Shown here in pieces: positions 8,509 through 24,000 of a stretch of 24,000 bases of DNA. The position numbers and the translations under genes were made by a program. This DNA comes from Bacillus suaedaesalsae (GTDB lineage Bacteria; Bacillota; Bacilli; Bacillales; SA4). The stretch covers positions 30,933 through 54,932 of the forward strand of contig NZ_JAFELM010000021.1 of the NCBI RefSeq assembly GCF_016890225.1, in the 5' to 3' direction. The first letter of the stretch is position 1, and every line of letters starts with the position of its first letter. The notes below the pieces were generated by a model. The model saw only the letters and a list, made by a program, of their open reading frames with translations. It was not told where the DNA came from and did no database searches.

Positions 8509-8534
8509 ATTTAAAGGAACTAACTAAAATTTAG

Positions 8535-8606
8535 CTGGGCTAGCTGGATTTGAACCAACGCATGTCGCAGTCAAAGTGCGATGCCTTACCGCTTGGCTAT
8601 AGCCCA
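8535..8606 (-). tRNA. tRNA-Gln (anticodon UUG)
   Basis: Reverse complement reads TGGGCTATAGCCAAGCGGTAAGGCATCGCACTTTGACTGCGACATGCGTTGGTTCAAATCCAGCTAGCCCAG. It has a 7-bp acceptor stem, D loop AGCGGTAA, anticodon loop CUUUGAC and a GGTTCAAATCC T-arm. CCA is not encoded. Confidence 0.9.
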
Positions 8607-10444: not shown

Positions 10445-11248
10445 ATGAAAGAAGGTGATACCTTGAGCATGGTAGAAGAGCATGCTGAGAAGTTAGTTCA
10501 AGATGCGTACGAAAGAAGAGCGTCAGATATTCATTTTATCCCCCGGAAAGATGACGGCCACATTAAGTTACGGATCGGAAATGATTTAGTAGAAAAAGAG
10601 AAGGTCCCTAAAGAATTATTCACCAAACTTATCAATCACTTTAAATTTCTTGCTTCGATGGATATCGGAGAAAAGAGAAGACCACAAACAGGCTCTTTGG
10701 TTTTAACAGTTAAGGAAAAGCTCCTTAATCTTCGTCTATCAACCTTACCCACTCCTCATGAAGAAAGTTTAGTCATTCGCGTGCTTCCACAAGAAGAATC
10801 ATTTCCACTGTCAGAGTTATCTCTATTTCCAAACTCAACAAAAACGTTATTGTCATTTATGATGCACTCTCATGGATTAATCATTTTTACCGGGCCGACC
10901 GGGTCAGGTAAAACAACCACAATGTATTCCTTGCTTCAAGCCTCCAATCAACAATTAAGCCGAAATGTTATCACATTAGAAGATCCAATTGAAAAGCATT
11001 CTGATGAACTTTTACAAGTTCAAGTTAATGAAAAAGCAGGAATTACCTACAGCACAGGATTAAAGGCAATTCTAAGACATGATCCAGACATTATTTTGGT
11101 TGGGGAGATTCGTGATGAAGAAACCGCCCAAATTGCAATCAAAGCTGCGATGACAGGACATTTAGTATTAAGTACGATGCACACAAAAGATGCAAAGGGA
11201 GCTATTTACAGACTGTTAGAATGTAATCGTTCACGAAGCATGAGATAA
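10445..11248 (+). pseudogene. comGA: comGA (competence pseudopilus secretion ATPase), 3'-truncated: homology ends near nt 11221
   Basis: Walker A GPTGSGKTT, Asp box ITLEDPIE, Walker B DPDIILVGEIRD and His box TGHLVLSTMHT are all present. After KGAIYRLLE the ORF reads CNRSRSMR and stops (267 aa against ~350-360 aa for full-length ComGA). No comGB-like ORF follows. The likely true start is the ATG at 10469 (SD AAGGTGA at 10452-10458). Confidence 0.8.
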
Positions 11249-11288
11249 ATTCAAAACCTATAAGACAGATTCAAAAGCTATGAGATAA
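11238..11288 (+). repeat. Tandem ~20-bp direct repeat plus reiterated ATGAGAYA motif at the island junction
   Basis: ATTCAAAACCTATAAGACAG (11249-11268) against ATTCAAAAGCTATGAGATAA (11269-11288), 16/20 identical. ATGAGATAA occurs at 11240 and 11280, ATGAGACAA at 11334 and ATGAGATAG at 11449. Confidence 0.55.
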
Positions 11289-11484
11289 TGTTGGATTCGA
11301 TTACTGATTTAATAGGTATTAGAATTCACTAACATGAGACAAATGTATTTGTAATCTTACAAAGCTTTTTCATATCACATTCTAATTTTTTTAAGCTGCA
11401 TCTTTGTTTCATAGACCTTGAAACAAAAGGTGTAAATACTCACTGATGATGAGATAGGATAACATGATTCTAATGCTAAAACTC

Positions 11485-11513
11485 TTACATAATAGTTCCC
11501 CAATATATATAAA
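11485..11513 (+). promoter_or_regulatory. Candidate SigA-type promoter for the HEPN gene
   Basis: TTACAT (11485-11490), 17-nt spacer, TATAAA (11508-11513), ~45 nt upstream of the start. Confidence 0.3.
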
Positions 11514-11558
11514 AATTATAATAATACCCTTATGACAAATTTAATAGGAGAGAAAATT

Positions 11559-11933
11559 ATGATAGTACAAAGTGAAATAGAAACAATGCAAAAAGCCTAC
11601 GGAGAACTGTATGAAGTAGAAAACTTGTTGAGGTTATACATAAAGGAGAAAATGCAACTAACCTACGGTGTTCATTGGTTTTATGTAGCTCCTAGAAAGG
11701 AATATAAACGTCCTCCCAAAAAAGAATTTGAAAAATTACTATTCCACGAATATGAACAAGTTTACCTTAGAGCATATCCCGAAGCTTTTAAAGACCTCAA
11801 TTCGACATTCATTTATCAACTCCACTCCCTTTACCCACTCAGAAATACAATAGCTCATAATCATTATTTAGATAGGGAAGAACTTTCTGATTTATTACTT
11901 TTAAGTAGTAAACTCAAAGATGTGCTTAAATAA
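11559..11933 (+). CDS. Small Swt1-like HEPN-domain protein (putative RNase), 124 aa
   Basis: Start taken at the ATG after SD AGGAG (11546-11550). Rx4H motif LRNTIAHNH at nt 11841-11858. The N-terminal E..LR.YI....L..G..W pattern and overall all-helical layout match the remembered Swt1-type HEPN profile. Confidence 0.6.
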   Translation: MIVQSEIETMQKAYGELYEVENLLRLYIKEKMQLTYGVHWFYVAPRKEYKRPPKKEFEKLLFHEYEQVYLRAYPEAFKDLNSTFIYQLHSLYPLRNTIAHNHYLDREELSDLLLLSSKLKDVLK

Positions 11934-12120
11934 TAAAATAAATGTATTAGTATTCGAAAAAGAGAATTATAATTGATATGAATTTAAAAAGATATGATGG
12001 CTTAATTTATATATTAAAGAACACGCAAAATTAACTTGTGCGTATTAAATGTGTTAAAGAATAAATAAAGATTAAGAAAAAAATACCACAATAAAAAAGA
12101 AAAAGTCGGTAGGTCGTAAA

Positions 12121-12714
12121 ATGATGAAAAACATAATAAATTCAATTTTATCAAAAAATTTAACTGCCAAAGACCTTAAATATATCGAATTAATAATCAA
12201 GGCAGATATCCTAAATACAATAAATAAAAAACATAAGAAAAACGACATAAGGATAATAACACATTTGAATACCAGTGGTAATTTTGGATGTGCGATAATG
12301 GATTTTAATGGAGAAAAACAGTTATTTATTGCTCACAGTAAAGTTCAAAAAGAAAAGGATTGGGAACTAGTAAATGCAATGTTCTCGGAACCATACTTAA
12401 AAGGTGCCATTCGCTGCTATCGGGCGGAAGAGCTAAATCAAAGATATACGACTGAATGGCTAGATGATAATCTCGATAAAGACACATTAACTGCCTATGA
12501 TCGAAACAGGGACACTGAATCTAAAATTTTAGAAGAGGTTGCATCTTATTTAGATAATCAAGGATATAATGAAAGTAAAGATGAAATTAGTTTATATCTA
12601 TACACTGTTAAAGAACCCTGTCCAAGTTGTTCAAAGGTTATTAATACATTCAAAAGTGATTTTAGAGAGATAAATTTAGAGGTTTATTATCAAAATAATT
12701 TAATAAAAAAATAG
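12121..12714 (+). CDS. Deaminase-fold (polymorphic-toxin-type nucleic acid/nucleotide deaminase-like) protein, 197 aa
   Basis: D131-T-E133 followed 32 residues later by P-C167-P-S-C170, which is the [H/C/D]xE-x(24-36)-PCxxC spacing. A preceding beta-hairpin-like NFGCAIMDFNGEKQLFIAHS and the RDTESKILEEVA helix resemble toxin-type deaminases as I remember them. No signal or trafficking domain. Confidence 0.45.
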   Translation: MMKNIINSILSKNLTAKDLKYIELIIKADILNTINKKHKKNDIRIITHLNTSGNFGCAIMDFNGEKQLFIAHSKVQKEKDWELVNAMFSEPYLKGAIRCYRAEELNQRYTTEWLDDNLDKDTLTAYDRNRDTESKILEEVASYLDNQGYNESKDEISLYLYTVKEPCPSCSKVINTFKSDFREINLEVYYQNNLIKK

Positions 12715-12725
12715 GTGGTGAAATA

Positions 12726-13136
12726 ATGAATACAAATGAGTATGATCGGGATTATATAGAAATCATTGAAATGGTACCTATTTTAATGGATGACTTTCTA
12801 TCTGGTGGAGAAACTGTTGCGGAGGCTTCAGGAATGACATTAGTTGAATTAGAGGATTTATTTATAAAAGCAATGCCCTTAAAAATAATTGCTTATATTG
12901 AGTTATTAAACTATCCAAAGTTAAGAGGTAATGCAGAATTAACAACATATTATTTAAATAGGATAATTAATGAGATTGGATCATTTGATTTTTATAATAA
13001 TTTAAATGAAGAAAATCGTAAAAGGTTTGGAAAAAGTCTTTTGGATTTATTAACCATGCCTCAAAAAAAAATAAAAATGAATGAACGAGCTATGGTAAAC
13101 TTTGCACCTATGATTAATGAATCGCTTATTACATAA
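12726..13136 (+). CDS. Immunity-like partner of the deaminase-like protein (136 aa, no recognised domain)
   Basis: Starts 11 nt after the upstream stop with SD AGGTGG. Acidic and helical. The two genes share the terminator at 13120-13148. Confidence 0.4.
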   Translation: MNTNEYDRDYIEIIEMVPILMDDFLSGGETVAEASGMTLVELEDLFIKAMPLKIIAYIELLNYPKLRGNAELTTYYLNRIINEIGSFDFYNNLNEENRKRFGKSLLDLLTMPQKKIKMNERAMVNFAPMINESLIT

Positions 13137-13148
13137 GCGATTTTTTTT
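13120..13148 (+). terminator. Rho-independent terminator overlapping the stop codon
   Basis: AATCGCTTAT (13120-13129), loop TAC, ATAAGCGATT (13133-13142): a perfect 10-bp stem followed by a T-run to 13148. Confidence 0.8.
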
Positions 13149-13313
13149 GACAATTGTAAAATCAATATGATTCCCTTTGTAGTATTAGGTCCCAAATAGG
13201 ATGAGAGTAATTTTATTTTCTACAAGAGTTCTTAATTAAAGAGATTAGACTGTATACATATTAAAAGGGGAATTACTGTCCTTAGACATTAAAACAAGAA
13301 TAGGGTGAAAGAA

Positions 13314-13568
13314 ATGACAGAAAGAAAAGTGCAAGCTACACTAACCATTTCATGCGATATAGTAATAGATGACACAATTAAGAAAAACATTGAGGAATCT
13401 TATTCAAGATCATTGAATGATAAGGAGATAGCTAATAAATTGTTATATGCTTTCTTAAATCCTAAAATCGACTTGTTTAATGAACCAGACCTAGTTGATG
13501 GACAATGGGACATGGTGTGTGAGTTTAAAGGGAGATTCAGTGATTTTAGCCTTGACATTGAAGAGTGA
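13314..13568 (+). CDS. Small acidic hypothetical protein (84 aa from ATG 13314, 87 aa from GTG 13305)
   Basis: SD AGGGTGA (13302-13308) is spaced appropriately for the ATG at 13314. Net acidic, no TM segment and no recognised motif. Confidence 0.5.
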   Translation: MTERKVQATLTISCDIVIDDTIKKNIEESYSRSLNDKEIANKLLYAFLNPKIDLFNEPDLVDGQWDMVCEFKGRFSDFSLDIEE

Positions 13569-13660
13569 AAACTCAATTTACTAAAATTAGTTTTCTAAGT
13601 AAAATTCCCTAATTTTGTGTTATGCTGAAGCATATATAAATATTAAAGGGGAATAATGAC

Positions 13661-14713
13661 TTGACTCAAATCGCTATAAAAAAATTGATTGCTCATGATA
13701 TTGACTTAGATCAAAAAGCACCGACTCCAGCAACAAATGTTATTGACTTGACAACAACATCTCAAGAAGTACTTAACTTCTTTTCAGATCATGTGAAAAC
13801 AGCTCATACAACTAAACAAATAAAAGTATGTCGTTTTTCATATGAAAATGCTCAAGTTCTTTTAGACTCAATAGATATAGCTAAAGATATCAATGACGAT
13901 GATATGTTTGTATCTGCAACAGCTGATATGACGCATAGATTATTTAACATTATGAAAAGTTCTTCTACTAAAAGTTCAGGTGCAATGATTTATCTAGTAT
14001 ACGAAGATTTATCAGATTCTTCCCTTCATTTGGGGATTATGAAAATGGATCCGAATAAAGGAATTCAATACAACAAATCCACTAATTCATTTATCGTCCA
14101 ATCAAATATGCTACCGAATGCAAAAGACCGTCTTCATAAGACTGCTTTTATCAAGTTAAAAGAAGATTTATGGGGTGAGGATGTTCATTTATTTGTGCTG
14201 GATAAGCAGCAAACCAATGAAACAGTATCGAAGTTCTTTTTAATCTCATTCTTAGAAGCAGAAGTAAAAATAAATGATACTCTTGTTACGGAATTGGTAG
14301 AGAAAAAATTAGTGGAGATGGCAAGAACTCAGAAAATCACCCAAACTCCTCTTGATTTGTTGGACTTTAGTACGAAAGTAGATCGGATGTTAACAAGTCA
14401 CAAAGAAATTGACCTTGATTACGAATTGGACAGCCTATTAAAGTCATACATTTCTAGTGATGGAGATAGAGAGTCGAAGATAGAAGAAATTAAACTTGCT
14501 TTAAAAGAAGAGAACGAAGAGGTCTATTTCGAATTTAAAGCAACTAAAAAGCCGTCATATGCAGTATATTCAGACGTTCAAAATCAAATAAATTTTAAAT
14601 TTCCATTGGCTCTAAAAGGGAAGAAGGTTTTTATTAAAACAGAAGAAGTAGATGGACAAACAGTGACGACAATTAGGCTTGAAGGAACAGATTTAGTCGA
14701 AAAATTTAAGTAA
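13661..14713 (+). CDS. NdpA/YejK-like (NA37 family) nucleoid-associated-protein homologue, 350 aa
   Basis: TTG start after SD AAAGGGGA (13646-13653). N-terminus IAIKKLIAHDIDLDQ. Central GAMIYLVYEDL...LHLGIMKMD and HKTAFIKL...LDKQQTNETVSKFFLISFLEAE parallel the remembered YejK pattern (start I.LH.LI; ...ARIDL...FLKGR.G.KV.DFF.DFLGA.E). Confidence 0.5.
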   Translation: MTQIAIKKLIAHDIDLDQKAPTPATNVIDLTTTSQEVLNFFSDHVKTAHTTKQIKVCRFSYENAQVLLDSIDIAKDINDDDMFVSATADMTHRLFNIMKSSSTKSSGAMIYLVYEDLSDSSLHLGIMKMDPNKGIQYNKSTNSFIVQSNMLPNAKDRLHKTAFIKLKEDLWGEDVHLFVLDKQQTNETVSKFFLISFLEAEVKINDTLVTELVEKKLVEMARTQKITQTPLDLLDFSTKVDRMLTSHKEIDLDYELDSLLKSYISSDGDRESKIEEIKLALKEENEEVYFEFKATKKPSYAVYSDVQNQINFKFPLALKGKKVFIKTEEVDGQTVTTIRLEGTDLVEKFK

Positions 14714-16365
14714 TGGAGAATAGTATGAAACATTTAGTTGTCACATTTCAAAACTTAGTAACTGATTTAGACCAGGTGTCAAGTCGATTGGAATGGACTG
14801 AATCACTTCACCTTGTCTCTGTAACATATAGAGACAAGGTAGGATCATTTATTCATGTAATAAAAAATCCAACATACTTAGCTGAAATTAACAACACCCA
14901 TATAAGTGTAGAAGTAAAAATTGGTACAAATATACTCTATGATCAGCAATTTATTGATAAGTATGAAATGAAGATACTTGAGGACGATCAGGTAGCTGAA
15001 GTTACCATTAGCTTCAACAAAGAAATTAGCTTACAGCTACATTCAAATGTAACGTTATTCTTTAACATAGACTCATTTCTCTCAGAGTGGAGTTTCAATA
15101 ATTTAAGTATGGTTACATTCTTTAAGAATATAGATAAAGAAAAACAGGTATTCATTTACTTGCCTACTGACGAGAAAATAGAGAATCCCTTTTTGAAAGT
15201 AATCCCTTTTAAGGATTACAATGGATTTGAACCGAATGCCTTAGAACAAAATCAAAAGGATTTAATTGATGATAGTATAAAAATAAGGGAGGAACATACA
15301 CGTATATCGACAAGTATGCCTGTTCCTTATTATTTTTATTTTGAATCAAGCAAATTAAAATTCCCTGAAAACCTTTACTTATCTTTTCAGCAAAGTCTAT
15401 TTTTCTTATCATTACTCCATATAAGTAACAAATATGAAAATGAAGTTTTTATTGTTAGGGGTCAAAAAAGTGTGGAGTATAATTGGCAAAAAGATTTTAA
15501 ACCGAACTTTGCAGATATTTTATATAGTATTTTCAATTTCTGTTATGGTAAGGAACAGGCACAAGATAAACTGGAAATCGGTAGGAATATACTAACTACT
15601 TATCATCTTGATGAATCAATAGATAAATTAGACGCTCAGTTAGATAAAATTGAGAAAACAATTAATCGACATTTCTCACTTTATGTGAATGATAAAATAA
15701 AGAAGTTTTTAGATGAATCAAAAAAGGCAATAGATGAAGCTCATAAATATGCAAAAGAAACCAGAGAAGCCGCAGATAAGGTAGTCTCTAATATTAACAC
15801 TTCGATCATTGGATTAATTACAGCTGTTTTCTCAGGTATTGTTATTATGGCTAGAGGAAACAAGTGGTTTTTAATCGTAGCACTCTTACTACATATGTTT
15901 TATTTTGGATTAACATATTTTCTTAACCGTTATTTCGCTAAAAAGAAGCAAAAAGAAATTCTTGATGTGTATGACCAATCTATTGGATATATATCCAATG
16001 TCACTGAAGAAGAAAAGGTAGAAATAAAACAAATGTATATTGATTCTGCTTCAGAGAGTATCGATAACAATTTGAAAATCTATAAATGGCTCTCAAATTC
16101 ATTGGTTGTCTTAATGCTATTGCTAAGTATTGTTGTTTTCTTTTTTATGCCTAATTTGGATAGTGCTAAAAAACAATCAGAGCAACAAAATATAAAACAA
16201 GAACAGATAAATAAAGGTACTTCACCGAGTAATAATGAAGACAAAGTTCAAAATACCTCAGAAAAATCGAAACAGTCACAGGACCAAGCTGAAAAAAATA
16301 ACTCTAAGGTGAATCCCACTAATAGTAATACAGACTCGAACAAAAACTTGGATAATAAAAAGTAG
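14713..16365 (+). CDS. Large coiled-coil / 3-TM membrane protein with a Q/N/K/S-rich C-terminal tail, translationally coupled to the NdpA-like gene
   Basis: The ATG overlaps the upstream TAA (TAATG at 14711-14715). An alternative in-frame ATG lies at 14725 after GGAGA. About 370 aa are soluble with no recognised domain. A coiled-coil segment (DKLDAQLDKIEKTI...EAHKYAKETREAADKV) follows, then TM helices IIGLITAVFSGIVIMA, WFLIVALLLHMFYFGLTYFL and LVVLMLLLSIVVFFFM, then a ~75-aa low-complexity tail. Confidence 0.7.
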   Translation: MENSMKHLVVTFQNLVTDLDQVSSRLEWTESLHLVSVTYRDKVGSFIHVIKNPTYLAEINNTHISVEVKIGTNILYDQQFIDKYEMKILEDDQVAEVTISFNKEISLQLHSNVTLFFNIDSFLSEWSFNNLSMVTFFKNIDKEKQVFIYLPTDEKIENPFLKVIPFKDYNGFEPNALEQNQKDLIDDSIKIREEHTRISTSMPVPYYFYFESSKLKFPENLYLSFQQSLFFLSLLHISNKYENEVFIVRGQKSVEYNWQKDFKPNFADILYSIFNFCYGKEQAQDKLEIGRNILTTYHLDESIDKLDAQLDKIEKTINRHFSLYVNDKIKKFLDESKKAIDEAHKYAKETREAADKVVSNINTSIIGLITAVFSGIVIMARGNKWFLIVALLLHMFYFGLTYFLNRYFAKKKQKEILDVYDQSIGYISNVTEEEKVEIKQMYIDSASESIDNNLKIYKWLSNSLVVLMLLLSIVVFFFMPNLDSAKKQSEQQNIKQEQINKGTSPSNNEDKVQNTSEKSKQSQDQAEKNNSKVNPTNSNTDSNKNLDNKK

Positions 16366-16405
16366 GTCTATAATATGTTGTTTAACATTATAATCTACTA
16401 CAACT

Positions 16406-16453
16406 AAAAACCAGAAAGGAATCATTCATTACTAATGATTCCTTTCTGGTTTT
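16406..16453. terminator. Strong bidirectional terminator shared by convergent genes
   Basis: AAACCAGAAAGGAATCATT (16408-16426), loop CATTACT, AATGATTCCTTTCTGGTTT (16434-16452): a perfect 19-bp stem flanked by A- and T-runs. Confidence 0.9.
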
Positions 16454-16480
16454 ATATATTACTTGTAAACCGTCGACTAT

Positions 16481-16993
16481 TTATTTCAAAATGGAATTGT
16501 ATAGTGATCCCTTCCTCTTAGACCATTCGTAAATATAGTTTTTTAATTCCTCGACTCTTTGATCAGCATTAATCTTTCCATTTCTCTTACCAACTAATGA
16601 ATCCATTTTTAAAAACTCATGTATTAAATTTTCAGAATCGGGATACTCATAGCTATCGTTATATCCTGGATTAAGCCAATGCAAGTAAATAAAGTAATTG
16701 TTCTTTTGAAAATATCTTAGGGTGTTTAATGCATCTTTCTTAAATTGTATAGAACATAAAACGATTTCTGGAAGGTAGTCAACTTGTATTATCTCTTCTA
16801 CTGTTTTTCCCCGTTCTTGTGGAGAACCATTGATTAAAAATACGTCAGTGAACTCTCCATTAGGACCTACTTCTAATTTTCTTTCTGACCTTTGAGCTGT
16901 TCTTATATTCTTATCGTTAAAAAGTTTCTTCCATGTTTCCGACTTCCCAGAATTTCGATGACCAATTACTGCAATAAGTAATTTTTTTGTCAT
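16481..16993 (-). CDS. Small P-loop NTPase (170 aa), family not recognised
   Basis: SD GGAGG upstream. Walker A GHRNSGKS near the N-terminus (nt 16943-16966). A hydrophobic strand VFLINGSPQE is a possible Walker B. Confidence 0.6.
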   Translation of the reverse strand: MTKKLLIAVIGHRNSGKSETWKKLFNDKNIRTAQRSERKLEVGPNGEFTDVFLINGSPQERGKTVEEIIQVDYLPEIVLCSIQFKKDALNTLRYFQKNNYFIYLHWLNPGYNDSYEYPDSENLIHEFLKMDSLVGKRNGKINADQRVEELKNYIYEWSKRKGSLYNSILK

Positions 16994-17187
16994 AGTTTTA
17001 CCTCCATTATCTTACTGTTATGGTTAACATATTCTAAAAGAAGGTAAATAGAACTATTCTTTATATCAAGAATAATACTTGTACTGATCAAAGCCAGATA
17101 GTTTATTTTATGTGGGTACTATTCTAGAGTACATACTTTTTTACTTTTATTGGGAAAATAGTTTCATGTTTGAAAGGAGGATTTTTA

Positions 17188-17646
17188 ATGAGAAATTTCA
17201 CTTCGGCATTTACTCTTGCTGTATTACTAATATCAGCACCACATTTCACAAAGGCAAATTCAATGAAAGAACCCGTTGTACTTGAATCTGGTGAATGGAC
17301 ACTGACACTTGGTAATCCTGAAGTAACAGAGGAGGAACATTTGGCAAAAGGGAATAAAAATGCAGTTGTTTACTCATTAGGAATTACTAATAAATCTGGA
17401 CAAAAATATAATGTGAGAGTCCATACATTTAGAAAGGAACAAGGGAAGTCCTATGATTTCGGAATGTCTTTACATGAGACTGAAGGAATAGATATGGGTA
17501 CCGCTTCGGAACAAGGGAATGAAATTAAACATGTAAATTTCCCTGTGGGTAAAAAGACAAAAGAATTTGAAGTATTAATTACATGGCAGGATAAAGAAGA
17601 ATTCGGCAGGTTCTATAAACAGGAATTTATTGTTCCAGTAAAATAA
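17188..17646 (+). CDS. Secreted small protein (152 aa)
   Basis: SD AAAGGAGG (17173-17180) precedes the ATG at 17188. Signal peptide MRNFTSAFTLAVLLISAPHFTKA-NS. Confidence 0.65.
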   Translation: MRNFTSAFTLAVLLISAPHFTKANSMKEPVVLESGEWTLTLGNPEVTEEEHLAKGNKNAVVYSLGITNKSGQKYNVRVHTFRKEQGKSYDFGMSLHETEGIDMGTASEQGNEIKHVNFPVGKKTKEFEVLITWQDKEEFGRFYKQEFIVPVK

Positions 17647-17829
17647 TAACATTATTTATGGTTGTATATGAGATGTTGTGGAATTGAGGCAACTCTTTCT
17701 TTAAATAAATGGGAGTTTTTAGTATAAGAACAGAAGTTGTTGTTCAACTCCCTCCTTAATTGAAGTTAACAAGCAGGTAGTTTAGCTGAGTAGGAAGGAT
17801 ATATTGTTATTAATATTAGAAAAGTATTG

Positions 17830-17857
17830 AGAACGTCAAAGATGACGTTCTTTTTTA
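17830..17857 (+). terminator. Rho-independent terminator ~185 nt downstream of the nearest + strand stop
   Basis: AGAACGTCA (17830-17838), loop AAGA, TGACGTTCT (17843-17851), then T6. Confidence 0.7.
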
Positions 17858-18017
17858 TTGGCTGTTTTCGTAATGATTGTTGCTTTTTATTTATCCTGAA
17901 AGATTGTAGTATAAAAGAATAACAATTTATAATAGGAGATTTAAAAATCAAATTTTAAAGAAAGTTATGAAACCTTTTGATTTTATATCCGTAAAGTTAT
18001 ATAGGAGAGGTGATGTT

Positions 18018-18533
18018 TTGAAAAAGTTTTACGTACCGTTTATGTTAATCTTTATCTTGTTTGGTTGCTCAACCAAGACTACGGAACCAAGTAACACAGA
18101 AGGTTTATCATTAGAAAACCAAATCACCAATGTTATGTCAGAAAATAATTTAAGCAATAAAGAAATTATTGATTATGATATTAAGGATAACTTCATCTAC
18201 GTAATTTTCGAAAATAGACAAGGAGATAACAGTTATCCAGATTTAGCTATTCTAAAGAATAACAATGGAAAATTAGTATGGGAAGCAGGTCCAGACGACC
18301 GAACTCAGTCAATAAGTGATGCTATGGTCTTTGGAAGGGATGAAGGTTCTACTGTAACATTACTTTTACCAAACCAAGAGAACATAAAAAGCATTAAAGT
18401 CTTAGGGGAATATGCAAAAGCTGTAACTTACGTTGAGGAAGTTACTGATGATTTTTATATGAAACATATGTATTGGATTGCATATACGAATGAAGAACCA
18501 ACACACGAGGATATTGAAATCATAATGGAATAA
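18018..18533 (+). CDS. Lipoprotein (171 aa)
   Basis: SD AGGAGAGG (18003-18010) precedes the in-frame TTG at 18018. Signal peptide MKKFYVPFMLIFILFGC-S carries the lipobox LFGC. Confidence 0.65.
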   Translation: MKKFYVPFMLIFILFGCSTKTTEPSNTEGLSLENQITNVMSENNLSNKEIIDYDIKDNFIYVIFENRQGDNSYPDLAILKNNNGKLVWEAGPDDRTQSISDAMVFGRDEGSTVTLLLPNQENIKSIKVLGEYAKAVTYVEEVTDDFYMKHMYWIAYTNEEPTHEDIEIIME

Positions 18534-18539
18534 ATGATT

Positions 18540-18570
18540 AACGCTTGGGTATAAACCCAAACGTTTTTTT
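18540..18570 (+). terminator. Rho-independent terminator
   Basis: AACGCTTGGGT / ACCCAAACGTT stem (10 of 11 bp) with loop ATAA, followed by T7. Confidence 0.75.
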
Positions 18571-18821
18571 ATGCACTTCTAAACATCTCGACAGTAGCAT
18601 AATTTGACTTATGGTCAGCTTGAAATAAAAGTTACTTCACTCGCTCCTTGTGAGCCAACTCGTTTCGATTTTGTGCGACTCCACCACGTTTACGAACTTC
18701 TCGGTAATCTTCGATTAGTAATTTACTACATCTCCATCAGTATTCAATATTTTAATATCATATGTATCAATACTTGATACTGAATCTAATTCATTAGATT
18801 GTAAGATTTCAATAACTTCTT

Positions 18822-19337
18822 TCACAACCATCTTAGCTGCCTTAGTTGCTTCTTACCTGAATCTTTTATTGATGTTTGGATGGAAATAGTCTTTTGTGGA
18901 TACTCGGTATGTATATCTCCAACACCTTCGTATTCTTTAAGTCCTTCCATTAAAGTTGATGTTAATAGTGAAAGTTCCTTGTTAATTTCTTCACTATTTT
19001 GCGAAGATAAATCTATTCCTTCAACAACAATATTATAATCTTTTATTGAGGATGAGTTAATAATTCTTGTTGTGGTTGTCTTTATATCATTTTTCACGGT
19101 GTTAATATAATCTGCATTCCCATTTATTTGTATCACTAACTCATTCTTATGTGTTGTTTTTACAAACACACCCTCATATTTGTCATCTAACCTATCAGTC
19201 AAAGATTCCAATAAAGATAAATCCTTCCCTATCTTCGAATCATTAGCTTTTTTGGCTTCAAAAGGATTAGTTAAGATGCTAAATGATAATGTTCCTACTA
19301 CTATAATTCCAACAATGATTATAATCACTTTTTTCAT
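18822..19337 (-). CDS. N-terminally membrane-anchored protein (171 aa), possibly frameshifted near its 3' end
   Basis: SD AGGAGGG. TM anchor MKKVIIIIVGIIVVGTLSFSIL. A second frame continues (EATKAAKMVVKEVIEILQSNELDSVSSIDTYDIKILNTDGDVVNY) to a stop at 18715-18717. Confidence 0.55.
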   Translation of the reverse strand: MKKVIIIIVGIIVVGTLSFSILTNPFEAKKANDSKIGKDLSLLESLTDRLDDKYEGVFVKTTHKNELVIQINGNADYINTVKNDIKTTTTRIINSSSIKDYNIVVEGIDLSSQNSEEINKELSLLTSTLMEGLKEYEGVGDIHTEYPQKTISIQTSIKDSGKKQLRQLRWL

Positions 19338-19534
19338 AAGATCCCTCCTGATATGAGGGTATGTACTATTTTCTAAATAATGTCATAAAAGTCTTTACTG
19401 ATTAGAAGAAAATAGACATTTGATCATAAAATGGACTTTCCCTTTTATAGGGATGTTATTAATGTGAAATTCGAAATTAGTCTGGATTAAGTTTTAATAA
19501 ATATATGTTATATTGTGACAAACTCATCTTCTTA

Positions 19535-19726
19535 TCAAACCTGAATACTAGTATGATTTTTCGACTTAATCTGGTTATAAAAAAGTATATATGATAGGCA
19601 AATAACGAGTGGGAAATTCAATTGTTTTCCTGCAACTAACAACTCGATTTTAAACATATGGGTTAGGAAAATTAACAGATGGTTCATAACTAAGCTAAGT
19701 GAGAAGGTATATATAAAGTTATTCAT
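19535..19726 (-). CDS. 63-aa hydrophobic peptide, start overlapping the stop of the upstream gene
   Basis: ATGAATAA overlap (19719-19726). AAGGAGGTGA lies inside the 3' end of the upstream gene, 8 nt before this ATG. Two hydrophobic segments: FIYTFSLSLVMNHLLIFLTHMF and FPLVICLSYILFY. Confidence 0.45.
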   Translation of the reverse strand: MNNFIYTFSLSLVMNHLLIFLTHMFKIELLVAGKQLNFPLVICLSYILFYNQIKSKNHTSIQV

Positions 19727-20702
19727 ATTTTATCTCACCTCCTTTTAGCTCCTCGTCTAAGGACTGAAGTACAATAGGAAGAGCCATATGCAATGTTTCT
19801 TTGTCACCGATGTTCTCACTCAAACTAAGTAACTGGTTCAAAAATTTAACCAACAGTCGGTTCACTAGCAAGAGAATAATTAGGAATTTTAATAAATTTG
19901 GATCAACTAGAGGATTGCCCAGTCCAGCATTTTTAAACATTAATATAAAAGGAGTAATAAACTTGTCAATAAAAACTGAATTGACTTGATTTTCCTTAAA
20001 GTATTCGATATACCAGCCTATAAACTTAAATACTCTTTGAACTTCTGATAATTCTTCTTTGGTAATTCTATTAATTTGATAACCCCAGTTACTGACATCC
20101 ATCCATTCTTGTGTAGAGTCTTTATTTGTTATTGATCCAGGTGATGTGTATCCTAACTGATCCAAAAAAATTTTGCTGGTCTCTTCATCTAGTTGTCCAT
20201 TTGAAAAAATTTCATTAATCACATTTAGGACTGTAAATAATTTTTCCTGTTCTTGTCTCCTCAATTTCATTTTTCTTTCTAACTCTTTTTTACTTGGTCT
20301 TCCAGAATTCAGAACTGGAAGATTTTTCTCGGCTACTTCTCCGACAACCCATTCTTTTTTACTATTATCTTCAATCACTTCTAATAAATGATTAAAATTT
20401 ACAATCATATCTTCTACATAATCAACCAATGATAACTTTAGTTTTTTAATATCTACTAAATACCCTTTTGAAAATAGGAACTGGATAAGATCTTTATCGT
20501 ATATTCCATTACTTTTTAAATTCGTTATCTCTAATATTACGTCTAATGAATTTAAAGGATAGCACGCTTTAACACCTTTTCCTTTTCCTTCACTGCTTCT
20601 TTCAGAGGATAATAGTCCGTTTTGTACATATCTTCTAAATTGGCTATCTGTTAAATGAATATTATTCTTTTCCGCCTCAATAAATATTTCTTCCCTTTTC
20701 AT
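19719..20702 (-). CDS. Hypothetical protein with an N-terminal MerR/YhbD-like HTH-type domain (327 aa)
   Basis: Start taken at the ATG (track M9) after SD AAGGAG. N-terminus REEIFIEAEKNNIHLTDSQFRRYVQNGLLSSERSSEGKGKGVKACYPLNSLDVILEI fits the remembered MerR-like winged-helix pattern. The rest is helical and unrecognised. Confidence 0.55.
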   Translation of the reverse strand: MKREEIFIEAEKNNIHLTDSQFRRYVQNGLLSSERSSEGKGKGVKACYPLNSLDVILEITNLKSNGIYDKDLIQFLFSKGYLVDIKKLKLSLVDYVEDMIVNFNHLLEVIEDNSKKEWVVGEVAEKNLPVLNSGRPSKKELERKMKLRRQEQEKLFTVLNVINEIFSNGQLDEETSKIFLDQLGYTSPGSITNKDSTQEWMDVSNWGYQINRITKEELSEVQRVFKFIGWYIEYFKENQVNSVFIDKFITPFILMFKNAGLGNPLVDPNLLKFLIILLLVNRLLVKFLNQLLSLSENIGDKETLHMALPIVLQSLDEELKGGEIKYE

Positions 20703-20944
20703 AAAGTCACACTCCTTATAATCCAATTCTAAGTGAGATTAATAGATGAAAACAACATGATGAGAATGCGCAAATGAAAATAAATTATAATAGACCTAGA
20801 ATTAATATCTTTATAATAAATAGAAGGAGTTAAGAAATGATTTCTAGAAGTAAGAGCTGTTAAAGTTTAAAGATGTGTGAAGTGGAAGAATGATAGCAAT
20901 TAATCAGTAAGGTCATGCAAAGATAGTTAAGGGGAAATGGAACA

Positions 20945-21322
20945 ATGTTAGATAATAAAATACAAAAAGATGATATAGTGCATTTTTTAGACCTAGTAAA
21001 TTCAAGTTATAGTCCTAATTTTAAGTTAGGGCACTCAAAAATTGGAAAGCCGAAGCCATATTATAAAATATTAAAAGAAGAATACGTAGATAGTCTTGAA
21101 TATCAAAGTTTTATAAAAGTCTATTTATTTTCAAGACATGTTTTAAATGAGCAAGAATTGTATGTATTAAATCATACATATGGGGTATCAGGTGAGTTCT
21201 ACAAGGGGACTCAAATTGCAAAAATGTTAAACTTATCAAATACACGTATAAGAGCTGTGAGGGTTAAAGGTGAACAAAAAATAAGCACATTTTTAAGGAA
21301 GCAGCTTAATAAAGTTCATTGA
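20945..21322 (+). CDS. Small protein with a sigma-70 region-4-like HTH only (125 aa)
   Basis: SD AAGGGGA. The C-terminal LNEQELYVLNHTYGVSGEFYKGTQIAKMLNLSNTRIRAVRVKGEQKISTFLRKQL matches the region 4.2 pattern. No region 2. Confidence 0.5.
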   Translation: MLDNKIQKDDIVHFLDLVNSSYSPNFKLGHSKIGKPKPYYKILKEEYVDSLEYQSFIKVYLFSRHVLNEQELYVLNHTYGVSGEFYKGTQIAKMLNLSNTRIRAVRVKGEQKISTFLRKQLNKVH

Positions 21323-21388
21323 ATTGATGAATCTTTATCTTAAATGTTTAAAATGTTGAATGCACAAAAGTAAATCATAGAAAACAAA

Positions 21389-21415
21389 GGGACCACATTG
21401 TGGTCCTATTTCTTG
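21389..21415 (+). terminator. Probable terminator
   Basis: GGACCAC / GTGGTCC stem at 21390-21406 followed by a T-rich stretch (TATTTCTT). Confidence 0.45.
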
Positions 21416-21520
21416 TGATTCCACCAATAAAATTATGAATTCTTATAAAATTTTAAAAAACTTTACAAATTATTAAGCCAAATTAGAAACTTTATTGTCT
21501 AATGTATGGAAGCATAAATA

Positions 21521-21646
21521 GTGGATGGGGGAAATGACATTATTAAACTAGTTAAAAAAGCGCAAAAGGGTGATGACATAGCATTCTTGAAGCTTTTAGA
21601 AAAGTACGAGTTCGTAATAGATACAAAGTATTTGATTCCGACTTAA
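21521..21646 (+). pseudogene. Remnant of an ECF/sigma-70-family sigma factor N-terminus (41 codons)
   Basis: GTG-initiated MDGGNDIIKLVKKAQKGDDIAFLKLLEKYE is the typical start of group-4 sigma factors (AQ.GD..AF..L...Y). It then diverges and stops. Regions 2 and 4 are absent. Confidence 0.45.
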
Positions 21647-21762
21647 AAGTAAAGCTAATTAAATATGAACAACTTGGAAGGGAATAGGGTAGCTGACAAA
21701 TCTCTTAGTATTATTTTCTTTATAAAGAGCCAATGAAGAATCGAGTATCTTCATTTAGTAGT

Positions 21763-21795
21763 AGCAGGTCACATTTATAAGTGAACTGCTTTTTC
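21763..21795 (+). terminator. Hairpin plus T-run (plus-strand terminator with no intact gene upstream)
   Basis: AGCAGGTCAC (21763-21772) / GTGAACTGCT (21781-21790), 9 of 10 bp, followed by T5. Confidence 0.5.
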
Positions 21796-21812
21796 ACTTT
21801 TTAGAGGAGATA

Positions 21813-22127
21813 CTATTCTTCATTCATTCTGCTTACCAAGAGTGTGATTCTATCAGTTCGGCTAAACATATTAATAAAAATGAAGTTAACACATTCAATA
21901 GCTTTAATAAATTTAAAGTGGATCGGTGTATCATCAAAAATGCAGTTTCTCTGGAGACATAATCCATTGCACGAAACATTCATATCCCATAAAAAGTAGG
22001 CTGAATAATAACCCCTCTCAGACAGCATGACTCCTATTCCTTCCTTAAATTCAACTATCTTTGTCCCTCCAATACTAAGGGACTCGACCTCTCTCAAGTA
22101 ATCTAAAAAACGTTCTTCTATATTACT
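21813..22127 (-). CDS. Hypothetical protein (104 aa)
   Basis: Start taken at the ATG (track M32) after SD AGGAGG. No recognised motif. Confidence 0.5.
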   Translation of the reverse strand, partial: SNIEERFLDYLREVESLSIGGTKIVEFKEGIGVMLSERGYYSAYFLWDMNVSCNGLCLQRNCIFDDTPIHFKFIKAIECVNFIFINMFSRTDRITLLVSRMNEE

Positions 22128-22202
22128 CATGCTACAAATACCTCCTAAAAACCTGAGTATCTTCATATTAGTCCAGAAACGGTAAAAATATTCACCATTA
22201 TT

Positions 22203-22230
22203 AAAAAAATATTTTATCAAAATGAATAAT
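22203..22230. repeat. 28-nt direct repeat, copy 1
   Basis: AAAAAAATATTTTATCAAAATGAATAAT. 25 of 28 identical to copy 2 at 22289-22316. Confidence 0.7.
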
Positions 22231-22239
22231 TAATAATAA

Positions 22240-22272
22240 AAAGAGACCCTCAAATTAAGATTGTAGGGTCCT
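22240..22272 (-). terminator. Probable terminator of the XRE gene
   Basis: GACCCT / AGGGTC stem. On the minus strand it is followed by TCTTTTT. Confidence 0.4.
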
Positions 22273-22288
22273 TTCTTTCATTTCTATC

Positions 22289-22316
22289 AAAAAAACATTT
22301 TATTAAAATGAATAAG
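22289..22316. repeat. 28-nt direct repeat, copy 2
   Basis: AAAAAAACATTTTATTAAAATGAATAAG. On the minus strand it contains the CATTTT/AAAATG mini-hairpin followed by T7. Confidence 0.7.
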
Positions 22317-22343
22317 ATATGAAAATCGCGTCTAAACAGTATA

Positions 22344-22697
22344 TCAAGACTTCTGGTTATTTTTATCAAAGAGGTCAGCGCCTTTTTCCACAAGTGAAAG
22401 AAGATATTCGGATTGGTCGGGATTTTCTTTATTTATCTTTCTAAGGAGGTGGTTAATGTGAAGGAGTCTTAACTCAAACTCGTCATCATCTTTTATAACT
22501 TTCATTGTCTCTAGACTAAATAGAGCAAACTCATCTTGCAGTTGTTGTAACAATGAAAGTTGTATGGTTTCACTCTTTCCAGTTTCAAGGTTACTTAGAT
22601 AACCAGCTGAGACTCCTAATTTATTTGCTAAATCGTGTAAACTGTATCCACATTTCTTTCGAAGAGTTCTAACTTTTTGTCCTATATCAGTTATCAT
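22344..22697 (-). CDS. XRE-family helix-turn-helix transcriptional regulator (117 aa)
   Basis: HTH_3 pattern IGQKVRTLRKKCGYSLHDLANKLGVSAGYLSNLETGK. The SD GAGGTGA favours the ATG at 22697 over the GTG at 22706. Confidence 0.8.
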   Translation of the reverse strand: MITDIGQKVRTLRKKCGYSLHDLANKLGVSAGYLSNLETGKSETIQLSLLQQLQDEFALFSLETMKVIKDDDEFELRLLHINHLLRKINKENPDQSEYLLSLVEKGADLFDKNNQKS

Positions 22698-22821
22698 GTC
22701 GTTCACCTCGTGGCTAGATTAGTATGATGTTTTATCTAGTTGTCTTTCTAATTTCATTATAACAAGAGGTAAAAAGATTTGGTGGAAAATTTTGAAAAAA
22801 ATAAAGGGGTTATGTTTCTAG

Positions 22822-24000
22822 ATGACAAGTACATGGGTTAAGAATTCATGTTTGGATTATATGAAAGAGAAAAACAAGATTATTTATTATGCAAAACAGT
22901 TTGATATGGATCCTCTTATGATGAAAATAATCTTCGACCGAGGGCATAAAGACTGGTACCAAATTAACAAATTTTTAAATGCTGAGCCTAGTGACCTAAT
23001 AGGACCATTCTATTTAAATGACATGAAAAAAGCGATTGAAAGAATTAATCTTGCCCTTCAAAAGGAAGAAAAGATGATGATATTTGGGGACTATGATACG
23101 GATGGGATAACATCTACTTCTCTTTTATATAAAGCTCTTAGGCTTTTAAAAGGAAGTGTTGATTATTATATTCCTAAAAGGGTAGATGGATATGGTTTGT
23201 CAGTAGCGGCAGTTGAGAAATTTTTTGAGAAGGATATTTCATTAATAATCACAGTTGATAATGGATCATCAGCTCATGAAGCCATTAAACGAGCGAAAGA
23301 GTTGGGGATGGAGGTCATTGTTACTGATCATCATGAAATTTTAAGAGGGAATCCCATTTGTTCAGCTTTTGTCAATCCAAAACAGAGTGGCGAAAGATTT
23401 CCTTTTTCATATCTAGCAGGTGCAGGAGTTGCTTTTAAATTGGTTCATGCGCTTTTACTTGAAAGAGGGATGTGGGAAAAGAAATGTTGGGATTTTGTTG
23501 AACTTGCAGCAATTGGAACAATAGGCGATGTCATGCCTCTTCAAGATGAAAACAGAAGGATAGTACAACTTGGATTGGAGAAGATGAACAGGGCACCTTC
23601 TCCAGCGTTAAGAGTCTTATTCAAGCTATTAAGGAAAGAGGAAATCACATCAACAAATATAGCATTTTCAGTTGTACCCATTATTAACGCGGTCGGAAGA
23701 TTAAGTGATCCCAATTTTATGGTAAGAGTGTTTACAGGTGAAGGTAAGGACGAACAGATTGAGGAATGTTGGAAGAAGCTAATTCGTCTAAATAATATGA
23801 GAAAAGATTTACTTCACCAACAAGTCATGCAAGCAGAATTGTTAATTCAATTGAATGCGTTGGATAAGCAGGAAGTCATTGTAGTTGCTGGAGACTTTCA
23901 TGAAGGTTTAATAGGATTAATTGCTTCAAGAATCACTGACAAATATAAAAAACCAAGTATTGTGTTTAACTCTCGTGGAAAAGGTTCGGCAAGAAGTGTA
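22822..24000 (+). CDS. RecJ-like DHH/DHHA1 single-strand-specific exonuclease paralogue (C-terminus beyond the window). Not in the supplied ORF track.
   Basis: My translation from the ATG at 22822 is open to nt 24000 (393 codons). RecJ motifs in order: IFGDYDTDGITS, YIPKRVDGYG, ITVDNG, VTDHHE, LAGAGVAFKL, LAAIGTIGDVMPL, NAVGRL and GSARSV. The start is uncertain (the SD AAAGGGG lies 11 nt upstream). Confidence 0.8.
   Translation, partial: MTSTWVKNSCLDYMKEKNKIIYYAKQFDMDPLMMKIIFDRGHKDWYQINKFLNAEPSDLIGPFYLNDMKKAIERINLALQKEEKMMIFGDYDTDGITSTSLLYKALRLLKGSVDYYIPKRVDGYGLSVAAVEKFFEKDISLIITVDNGSSAHEAIKRAKELGMEVIVTDHHEILRGNPICSAFVNPKQSGERFPFSYLAGAGVAFKLVHALLLERGMWEKKCWDFVELAAIGTIGDVMPLQDENRRIVQLGLEKMNRAPSPALRVLFKLLRKEEITSTNIAFSVVPIINAVGRLSDPNFMVRVFTGEGKDEQIEECWKKLIRLNNMRKDLLHQQVMQAELLIQLNALDKQEVIVVAGDFHEGLIGLIASRITDKYKKPSIVFNSRGKGSARSV

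Follow-up and report, generated by a model that had tools for sequence, protein, structure and literature searches.

Tn7, which encodes TnsABC and TnsD, inserts at attTn7, a site located downstream of glmS. Tn7-like elements that carry defence systems have been documented (Benler et al. 2021, PMC8649781). Elements of the Tn6022/AbaR type are inserted in comM of Acinetobacter (PMC10293859, PMC11014353). Defence-loaded Tn7-like transposons and homing into a competence gene are, accordingly, already known. Here, we analyzed a stretch of 24,000 nucleotides from Bacillus suaedaesalsae (hereafter, the window; C18:30933-54932 of a 3.9-Mb draft genome with 36.2% GC) in which the competence gene comGA is interrupted after position 11221. 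An initial annotation had described positions 11222-24000 (the island) as either the accessory arm of a large integrated element beside an attachment site or a decaying element. We conclude, with a probability of roughly 0.9, that the island is the comGA-5'-proximal arm (the left arm) of a single 32,340-bp Tn7-like transposon that lacks TnsA and carries variable defence and toxin cargo. The idea of an accessory arm is, thus, borne out by precise boundaries, foreign DNA, toxin/defence-type cargo, and no phage body. The idea of decay applies in part: of the three catalytic residues, two are gone from a TnsB-like paralogue, and one TniB copy has been reduced to 119 aa. Still intact are the ends and the target duplication as well as TnsB, TnsC, and both TniQ genes. 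This reading explains the boundaries of the island, its mode of arrival, and its mosaic content, and it turns one odd locus into a family.

The element shares with Tn7 a DDE transposase TnsB with a Mu-type C-terminal domain, an AAA+ TnsC/TniB, a TniQ/TnsD selector, TGT...ACA terminal repeats, subterminal repeats, a 5-bp duplication, and one fixed site in a conserved gene; with Tn7-like elements (PMC8649781) it shares a cargo rich in defence systems. Unlike Tn7, it is without TnsA, has two TniQ proteins with HTH_17 tails, has its core in mid-element with cargo on both sides, has a RecJ-like nuclease and an XRE repressor linked to this core, and inserts inside the target gene, destroying it, rather than downstream. 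With Tn6022/AbaR it has in common Tn7-like homing into the coding sequence of a competence-related ATPase, by which the gene is broken and an accessory island is built; however, the gene is a different one (comGA, coding for a PilB/GspE-type ATPase), the host belongs to a different phylum, the selector differs in that no TnsF-like tyrosine-recombinase-derived protein is seen here, and Tn6022 has TnsA. The TnsA-less branch of the superfamily (Tn5053/V-K-like) likewise combines TnsB, TnsC, and TniQ without TnsA and makes a 5-bp duplication, and replicative (cointegrate) products would be expected by analogy; in contrast to that branch, there is no TniR-type resolvase and no Cas12k or guide RNA here, and the target is a chromosomal gene and not a res or guide-defined site. 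New, then, are the comGA landing site, a mid-element core with two cargo arms, the finding of neither TnsA nor resolvase, and the linked RecJ-like nuclease. A literature search linking comGA with Tn7, Tn7-like, TniQ, TnsB, or TniB found no relevant paper, and neither comGA nor competence nor RecJ is listed in one supplementary file of PMC8649781.

A single bounded insertion splits comGA

The 5' part of comGA (codons 1-259; 10445-11221, + strand) matches Pfam T2SSE with 293.6 bits over profile positions 5-257 of 370 and is 94% identical to the intact ComGA of the closest relative (genome G003). After codon 259, the open reading frame (ORF; 10445-11248) continues through eight element-derived codons to a stop at 11248. 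A T2SSE family scan of the genome located the tail of comGA (profile positions 258-354) on the same strand 32 kb further down, with comGB to comGG, yqzE, and yqhG behind it. The scan gave no second comGA, only PilB/PilT-type paralogues. The relative G003 aligns unbroken across the empty site, and its homology with the host breaks exactly at 11221/11222 and at L002:7561/7562 (L001, L002, and L014 are sequence pieces past the window, where all element genes are on the + strand). The start proposed in the initial annotation, 11222, is, thus, the exact first base of the element, which has a length of 32,340 bp (window-equivalent 11222-43561) and extends 19.6 kb beyond the window end. Joining the flanks in silico, with the element and one copy of TAGAA removed, gave an intact 357-aa ComGA ORF. 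In nearly all of 40 relatives searched, comGA is one unbroken frame of ~350-375 aa; four have a single stop and in one further relative the gene is split.

Comparison of the junctions with the empty site in G003 also defined a 5-bp target-site duplication, TAGAA, with its left copy at 11217-11221 and its right copy at L002:7562-7566, directly after the right end of the element. The left terminal inverted repeat (11222-11241, + strand; 20 bp) starts with TGT and begins TGTAATCG, and the right one (L002:7542-7561, reaching window-equivalent 43561) is its perfect reverse complement (20/20). These two are the only exact copies in the 3.9-Mb genome, and the element contains no internal copy at up to four mismatches. 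In a motif search, four subterminal repeats YATRAGAYAR were found on the + strand at 11239, 11259, 11279, and 11333 (together 11239-11342). These four copies lie in the outermost 122 bp at the left tip, three more are in the outermost 180 bp at the right tip, and the rest of the 32 kb has a single copy; shuffles gave 3.2 +/- 1.6 copies over the whole element. The repeats probably represent TnsB binding sites, and the tight 20-bp spacing at the left tip resembles the right end of Tn7. We conclude that comGA contains a single bounded insertion with Tn7-type ends and a target duplication. Nested or tandem elements were also considered and rejected, there being no internal copies of the terminal repeat and no internal clusters of the end motif.

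A transposition core starts at the right edge of the window

The core opens with an XRE-family repressor (22344-22706, - strand; HTH_3, E=1.8e-8) that is divergent from a gene for a RecJ-like exonuclease of 553 aa in full (22822-24000, + strand, ending at L001:483; TIGR00644, 449 bits, cut-off 396.9). Orthologues of the repressor with 44-45% identity occupy the same position in the elements of Cytobacillus, Peribacillus, and G316 (a genome of the same order). On another contig (C40), the host encodes a separate RecJ of 786 aa, and the RecJ-like protein is, thus, an element-borne paralogue. It is located beside the transposition genes in six of the eight family members examined, in Peribacillus and Paenibacillus being absent within 10 kb of these genes; its orthologues, 43-54% identical, are kept as neighbours of TniQ, which lies directly downstream here. 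The RecJ-like gene may have a role in transposition or may be conserved cargo.

Past the window follow a TniQ of 626 aa with an HTH_17 tail (L001:514-2394; Pfam), a TniB/TnsC AAA+ ATPase of 335 aa (L001:2487-3494; TniB, 91.9 bits), a TnsB-like paralogue of 418 aa (L001:3777-5033), a TniB remnant of 119 aa (L001:5180-5539), TnsB itself (L001:5712-7772; 686 aa, with rve and Mu-transpos_C in Pfam), and a second TniQ-HTH_17 protein of 612 aa (L001:7855-9693; Pfam). Both TniQ genes scored above the Pfam cut-off in the genome scan, and an alignment with relatives revealed that TnsB keeps all three DDE positions. Because the 335-aa TniB is 55-68% identical to the TniB proteins that accompany TnsB in relatives (68% to that of Cytobacillus), we consider the set of TnsB, TnsC, and two TniQ proteins to be intact. 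In accordance with the initial annotation, no match to phage, conjugation, or integrase/recombinase families was obtained in the window using Pfam, PHROGs, and NCBIfam; however, the transposition genes begin 514 bp past its end, and the XRE repressor, which had been counted as island cargo, belongs with the RecJ-like gene (22344-24000) to the conserved core of the element family.

The TnsB-like paralogue upstream of the real TnsB is without the N-terminal DNA-binding region and comes with the extra TniB-like piece. The same arrangement is seen in Metabacillus (402 aa, E/D/E) and in Cytobacillus, where it forms a fused protein of 557 aa with an intact D/D/E (loci: window-equivalent 27777-29539 here, L015:7214-8887, and L026:8330-9538). 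That the paralogue recurs across diverged elements suggests a function rather than mere decay; in elements without TnsA, it might serve as a second catalytic subunit.

Further TniQ-domain genes are present in the same genome, i.e. two long ones on contig C37 (1318-3667; 17.9 kb, 34% GC) and a fragment on contig C46 (26-256). The host genome probably carries a second Tn7-like element.

Related elements use the same site in comGA

TnsB homologues with 40-62% identity were identified in Cytobacillus, Peribacillus, Metabacillus, Lysinibacillus, the B. cereus group, and Paenibacillus. Relatives whose TnsB is 49-56% identical have inserted at this comGA codon as well, namely in B. thuringiensis, Peribacillus frigoritolerans, and G316. 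Specifically, the ComGA fragment that adjoins the right tip (ending ...ATGAAYGRTTACA) in the first two of these begins with residue 258-260, and comGB comes after it. In G316, both junctions of a 32.1-kb relative could be read; its left tip is near-identical (TGTAATCGTTCACCAAG) and its 5-bp duplication, TTGGA, lies 1 bp from the TAGAA site used here. The Lysinibacillus copy abuts comGB, with its transposition genes and a TIR-SEFIR cargo gene directly upstream of that gene; a search found no ComGA fragment there. The insertion points of the four elements with read junctions (here, B. thuringiensis, Peribacillus, and G316) fall within a 5-bp span at codon 259, and all four insertions have one orientation relative to comG. 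A block 15-45 bp upstream of the insertion, comprising the His-box codons, has a conservation of 0.83-0.91 compared to the gene average of 0.76 and is a plausible candidate for the recognition site. The comGA-homing family is rare and patchy, with one close TnsB homologue among 400 genomes sampled from the order, whereas five other species of the genus have none.

The cargo left of the core differs in every relative: Peribacillus has Hachiman and an ATPase/HNH pair, Cytobacillus an Mrr-type nuclease, Lysinibacillus an SMC-like ATPase, and Metabacillus other content. Because the left-arm genes vary while the XRE repressor and the RecJ-like gene are conserved next to TniQ, we assign 11.5-22.2 kb to a cargo bay and 22.3-24.0 kb to the start of the core.

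Based on these data and by analogy with Tn7, we suggest that a conserved part of comGA would be recognized by a TniQ protein, that TnsC would recruit TnsB with insertion at a fixed distance from the TniQ-bound comGA, and that TnsB would cut the target with a 5-bp stagger after codon 259 and join the TGT...ACA ends to it. One of the two TniQ proteins presumably is the one that reads comGA, and the element may still be mobile. Following the Tn7 paradigm, the primary product without TnsA would be a cointegrate. Insertion of 32 kb in the first gene of the comG operon would eliminate ComGA, be polar on comGB-GG, and leave the host non-transformable; the insertion, thus, probably abolishes competence. 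A more far-reaching proposal, which we regard as tentative and rather doubtful, is that these elements form an undescribed Tn7-like lineage of Bacillaceae homing into comGA, in which the RecJ-like 5'-3' exonuclease and the truncated TnsB paralogue replace TnsA or a resolvase and the left arm is a defence bay that includes a Gram-positive three- or four-gene variant of the PANGU systems described below. Under this proposal, the RecJ-like protein and the TnsB paralogue would process the donor 5' strands or the strand-transfer intermediate.

For several Bacillaceae genera, comGA emerges as a programmed transposon landing pad that joins comM as a transformation gene targeted by Tn7-like elements, and this targeting fits the idea that mobile DNA gains from disabling transformation. 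A comGA-specific selector could possibly be used for site-specific insertion in Bacillus if the targeting protein and the DNA site were defined. The comGA of G316 has, besides the Tn7-like element, a second insertion of ~11 kb near codon 150 (C4:71732-83736), and that of genome G029 is split near codon 215 by ~49 kb (C34:34641-84772); comGA looks like a recurrent target of mobile DNA.

The left arm contains a candidate PANGU-like cassette and a putative deaminase-type toxin

YejK-like nucleoid proteins combined with effectors are reported in a 2026 preprint to constitute the PANGU abortive-infection systems, which were discovered by linkage to defence islands; in type II, Pag2A is YejK-like and Pag2B combines an acidic, DNA-mimicking N-terminal domain with a membrane domain at its C-terminus, and a YejK-like protein with a membrane effector is an experimentally supported type of defence (bioRxiv 10.64898/2026.04.06.716658). 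A YejK-domain unit was also validated in DefensePredictor. In the left arm, a cassette organized around a nucleoid-associated protein (NAP) consists of genes for a small acidic protein of 87 aa (13305-13568, + strand), a YejK/NdpA-like protein of 350 aa (13661-14713, + strand; Pfam NA37, 59.5 bits, cut-off 24.6, covering model positions 1-277 of 325), and a membrane protein of 550 aa (14713-16365, + strand), the start of which overlaps the NA37 stop codon. The 550-aa protein has a soluble, mildly acidic N-terminal part (residues 1-200 have a pI of 4.9), and membrane helices lie at ~360-405 and 456-485. Convergent on the cassette is a gene for a P-loop NTPase of 170 aa (16481-16993, - strand; Walker A GHRNSGKS), which has no family or PDB match and for which the single-sequence AF2 model had a mean pLDDT of 51, too low for a fold search.

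The cassette recurs at two other loci (L020 and L021), in both of which the 550-aa partner follows the NA37 gene. In Bacillus sp. DJP31, the three proteins (87-aa/NA37/550-aa) have 73/86/67% identity and the convergent P-loop NTPase is present in the same position (84% identical); this island also holds a TniQ-HTH_17 gene, ThiF/JAB and SLFN genes, and a type I restriction system alongside the cassette. On a metagenomic contig, the identities are 61/78/67%, a type I restriction system adjoins, and the P-loop gene is absent. The cassette is, thus, linked to known defence by type I restriction at both of these loci and by Gabija on the element described here. In the cargo of the Paenibacillus transposon relative (L027:1-1851), a pair of an NA37 gene and a gene for a 500-aa protein accompanies DarTG, a UvrD-like helicase, and GmrSD.

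The NA37/550-aa pair fits the type II PANGU architecture, i.e. a YejK/NdpA protein, an operonic larger protein with an acidic soluble N-terminus and a C-terminal membrane domain, and a location among defence systems; the 550-aa protein is, thus, a putative counterpart of Pag2B by architecture. The cassette differs from type II PANGU by its Firmicute host, the extra conserved acidic 87-aa protein encoded upstream, and the convergent P-loop NTPase at two of three loci. By analogy, the NA37 protein is a candidate sensor and the 550-aa protein a candidate effector, and the cassette most likely works like type II PANGU: as a phage degrades the chromosome, the nucleoid protein would be released, the membrane effector would become activated, and the infection would be aborted. 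Among the left-arm modules, the case for an anti-phage role is, in our view, strongest for the NAP cassette. The initial annotation had seen no close match to a named defence system in several modules, a statement to be updated for this pair in view of its type II PANGU architecture.

Upstream of the cassette lies a gene for a putative standalone deaminase-fold toxin of 197 aa (12121-12714, + strand) of the BURPS668_1122 family (PF14424, 83.3 bits, E=2.5e-23, cut-off 29.6). A word-based search gave only one distant relative and an exhaustive search was needed to find its homologues, of which there are 132 among 1.8 billion representatives; about half are standalone proteins of 150-210 aa, and in the rest the domain is the C-terminal end of proteins of 300-3700 aa. 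The motifs DTE and PCPSC are present. Following after a gap of 11 nt is a gene for an acidic protein of 136 aa (12726-13136, + strand; pI 4.6) that has no family match in Pfam, PADLOC, PHROGs, or NCBIfam; judging from its position, it is likely the immunity partner of the deaminase. A terminator-like hairpin (13119-13143) comes after this gene. The full-length model match, the PCxxC zinc motif, and a small acidic gene immediately downstream are shared with the BURPS668_1122 deaminases, whereas here the protein is standalone, has no delivery domain, reads D-T-E for H/C-x-E, and is transposon cargo. A solitary gene (11532-11933, + strand) encodes a candidate HEPN-domain protein of 133 aa (HEPN_Swt1, E=4e-4) with an R-x4-H motif at residue 104 and weak PADLOC matches to PDC-M34B and the HEPN of Cas13a; its single-sequence AF2 model is all-helical with a mean pLDDT of 46. 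On these grounds, the product is probably a HEPN protein/RNase.

The modules listed in the initial annotation (HEPN, deaminase pair, NdpA-like/membrane protein pair, P-loop NTPase, HTH/peptide pair, and XRE) are all where it had placed them. In line with its description of modules as independently terminated, the island has 10 terminator-like hairpins compared to 4.5 +/- 2.1 in shuffles, i.e. about twice the shuffle level, and they are positioned after several modules. The cargo bay would consist of independently transcribed modules.

In the right arm, outside the window, the genes gajA (an OLD-family ATPase with TOPRIM; L002:950-2965, 720 bits) and gajB (a UvrD-like helicase; L002:2955-4787, 710 bits), which overlap, form a complete Gabija system. 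The arms of the elements of this family make up a catalogue of candidate Gram-positive defence genes, including the compact NdpA-like/membrane cassette.

It is possible, although we do not favor it, that the left arm instead serves selfish stabilisation and niche adaptation. In this case, the deaminase pair and the HTH/peptide pair would be addiction (toxin-antitoxin) modules that maintain the transposon in the genome, the NdpA-like protein would be a xenogeneic silencer or regulator of the element, much as NdpA2 is for the PAPI-1 island, and the exported proteins would act in the surface biology of the host. This would agree with the deaminase belonging to a polymorphic-toxin family with an adjacent immunity-like gene, and an NdpA paralogue is reported to regulate transfer of an integrative element (PMC8565334). 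PADLOC also gave only the two weak HEPN matches and no known system for the ten left-arm proteins tested, and most of these are orphans. However, a tight coupling links the NAP gene to that of a membrane protein, and the cassette moves as a unit beside restriction systems at two other loci; because such travel is the criterion by which PANGU-like systems are defined, it counts against this alternative. Moreover, the sister arm and the arms of relatives hold bona fide defence systems.

Observations against a Tn7-like transposon with defence cargo, and other possible origins of the island

Several observations argue against the reading of the island as the defence-loaded arm of a TnsA-less Tn7-like transposon. 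First, no TnsA domain was found in the element ORFs scanned with Pfam or in the Pfam lists of six relatives; a search of the whole genome with PF08722 also gave no match, a weak negative as the search control likewise gave none. Because no TnsA was found, we placed the element in the TnsA-less part of the Tn7 superfamily (Tn5053/V-K-like). No serine or tyrosine resolvase was found in the element either; together with the linked RecJ-like nuclease, the lack of both raises the question of how the product is resolved and transposition is completed in such elements. Second, the core has the mid-element position that sets it apart from Tn7, its gene order (TniQ, TniB, TnsB-like paralogue, TniB remnant, TnsB, TniQ) differs from that in most relatives, and the 418-aa TnsB paralogue has lost the first D and the E of the DDE triad. 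The deviant order and the lost catalytic residues show that the element has undergone some rearrangement and decay. Third, with respect to the cargo, the negative PADLOC result applies here as well, the HEPN_Swt1 match of 21 bits is below the Pfam cut-off of 27.5, the first zinc motif of the deaminase reads D where H/C is usual, and the 550-aa protein is a putative member of the Pag2B family by architecture.

Fourth, the compositional step at the comGA junction is small. The island was correctly recognized as AT-rich from the outset: its 12.8 kb have 30.8% GC compared to 34.0% in the adjacent 11.2 kb and 36.2% in the genome, and this value is within the lowest 0.35% of 12.8-kb genome windows (z = -3.6). 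However, GC3 of the genes is alike in island and flank (0.272 v 0.288, p = 0.39). Because the adjacent 11 kb is itself low in GC and GC3 is alike, composition supports a foreign origin without proving it.

We also considered that two or more mobile DNAs have piled up at comGA and that the left arm is an eroded separate element. Consistent with such a history, the element has two diverged sets of transposition genes (34% identity between TnsB and its paralogue and 31% between TniB and the remnant), the core is central, ORF fragments occur in the left arm, the GC content of which is 3 points below that of the core, and the comGA of G316 bears a second independent insertion. By contrast, there is one pair of inverted repeats and one duplication, and the end motif is not clustered internally. 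The TnsB paralogue and the extra TniB also occur in the Cytobacillus and Metabacillus relatives, and because this arrangement recurs there, it predates the insertion here. Finally, left-arm cargo beside XRE/RecJ/TniQ is the rule in the family. We, therefore, regard a pile-up as improbable and favor one Tn7-like transposon. Hardly credible is a decayed prophage or integrative conjugative element with comGA as its attachment site: prophages are frequent among the mobile elements that interrupt competence genes, an XRE repressor is present, and comGA of G029 is split by ~49 kb at a different codon, but the 32 kb have no capsid, tail, terminase, portal, relaxase, coupling-protein, or integrase matches, the ends consist of TGT/ACA inverted repeats beside a 5-bp duplication rather than of direct att repeats, and TnsB, TniB, and TniQ are present. 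A Mu-like prophage, prompted by the Mu-type transposase domain and the 5-bp duplication, was rejected based on the lack of any phage gene and the site-specific insertion.

Remaining cargo and genomic setting

Between the P-loop NTPase gene and the core, the left arm has three genes for small orphan proteins that are exported or membrane-anchored, as judged from N-terminal hydrophobic segments: the first at 17170-17646 (+ strand), a lipoprotein-like one at 17967-18533 (+ strand), and one with a sub-threshold Phr_nterm match at 18822-19337 (- strand). None of the three has a significant family match, and terminator-like hairpins lie among their genes at 17829 and 18545. Next is a pair (19535-20726, - strand) that consists of a gene for a second 335-aa protein, which possibly has a MerR-like N-terminus (weak match to GlnR of the MerR family, E=0.16), and an overlapping gene for a hydrophobic peptide of 63 aa; the pair has no match in Pfam, PADLOC, NCBIfam, or PHROGs. 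Two orphan ORFs (20945-21322, + strand, and 21813-22220, - strand) have no family match and are separated by short ORF fragments and a hairpin at 21389-21407. For the orphan proteins, PHROGs and NCBIfam gave nothing useful, and no significant match in the PDB was obtained by sequence search for the P-loop protein, the deaminase, the NA37 protein, or this 335-aa protein. Rfam and tRNA scans detected no RNA genes in the island.

In the right arm, a gene for a KAP-family NTPase of 957 aa with a weak PifA-like match (L014:75-2948) accompanies Gabija, and genes for a 324-aa orphan and a 201-aa zinc peptidase and a 94-aa ORF (L002:4905-6869) lie downstream of Gabija.

On the chromosomal side of the junction, a 516-aa ORF without a Pfam family (8742-10292, + strand) lies just upstream of comGA and after a tRNA-Gln gene (8534-8606, - strand). 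The gene content of the first 11.2 kb of the window is typical of the Bacillus yqg-comG neighbourhood, with genes for a sulfatase-type enzyme, an M14 peptidase with LysM, YqgU, a thiamine-binding protein, a metallo-beta-lactamase, a methyltransferase, DUF2626, and an ArsC/Spx-like protein, followed by comGA.

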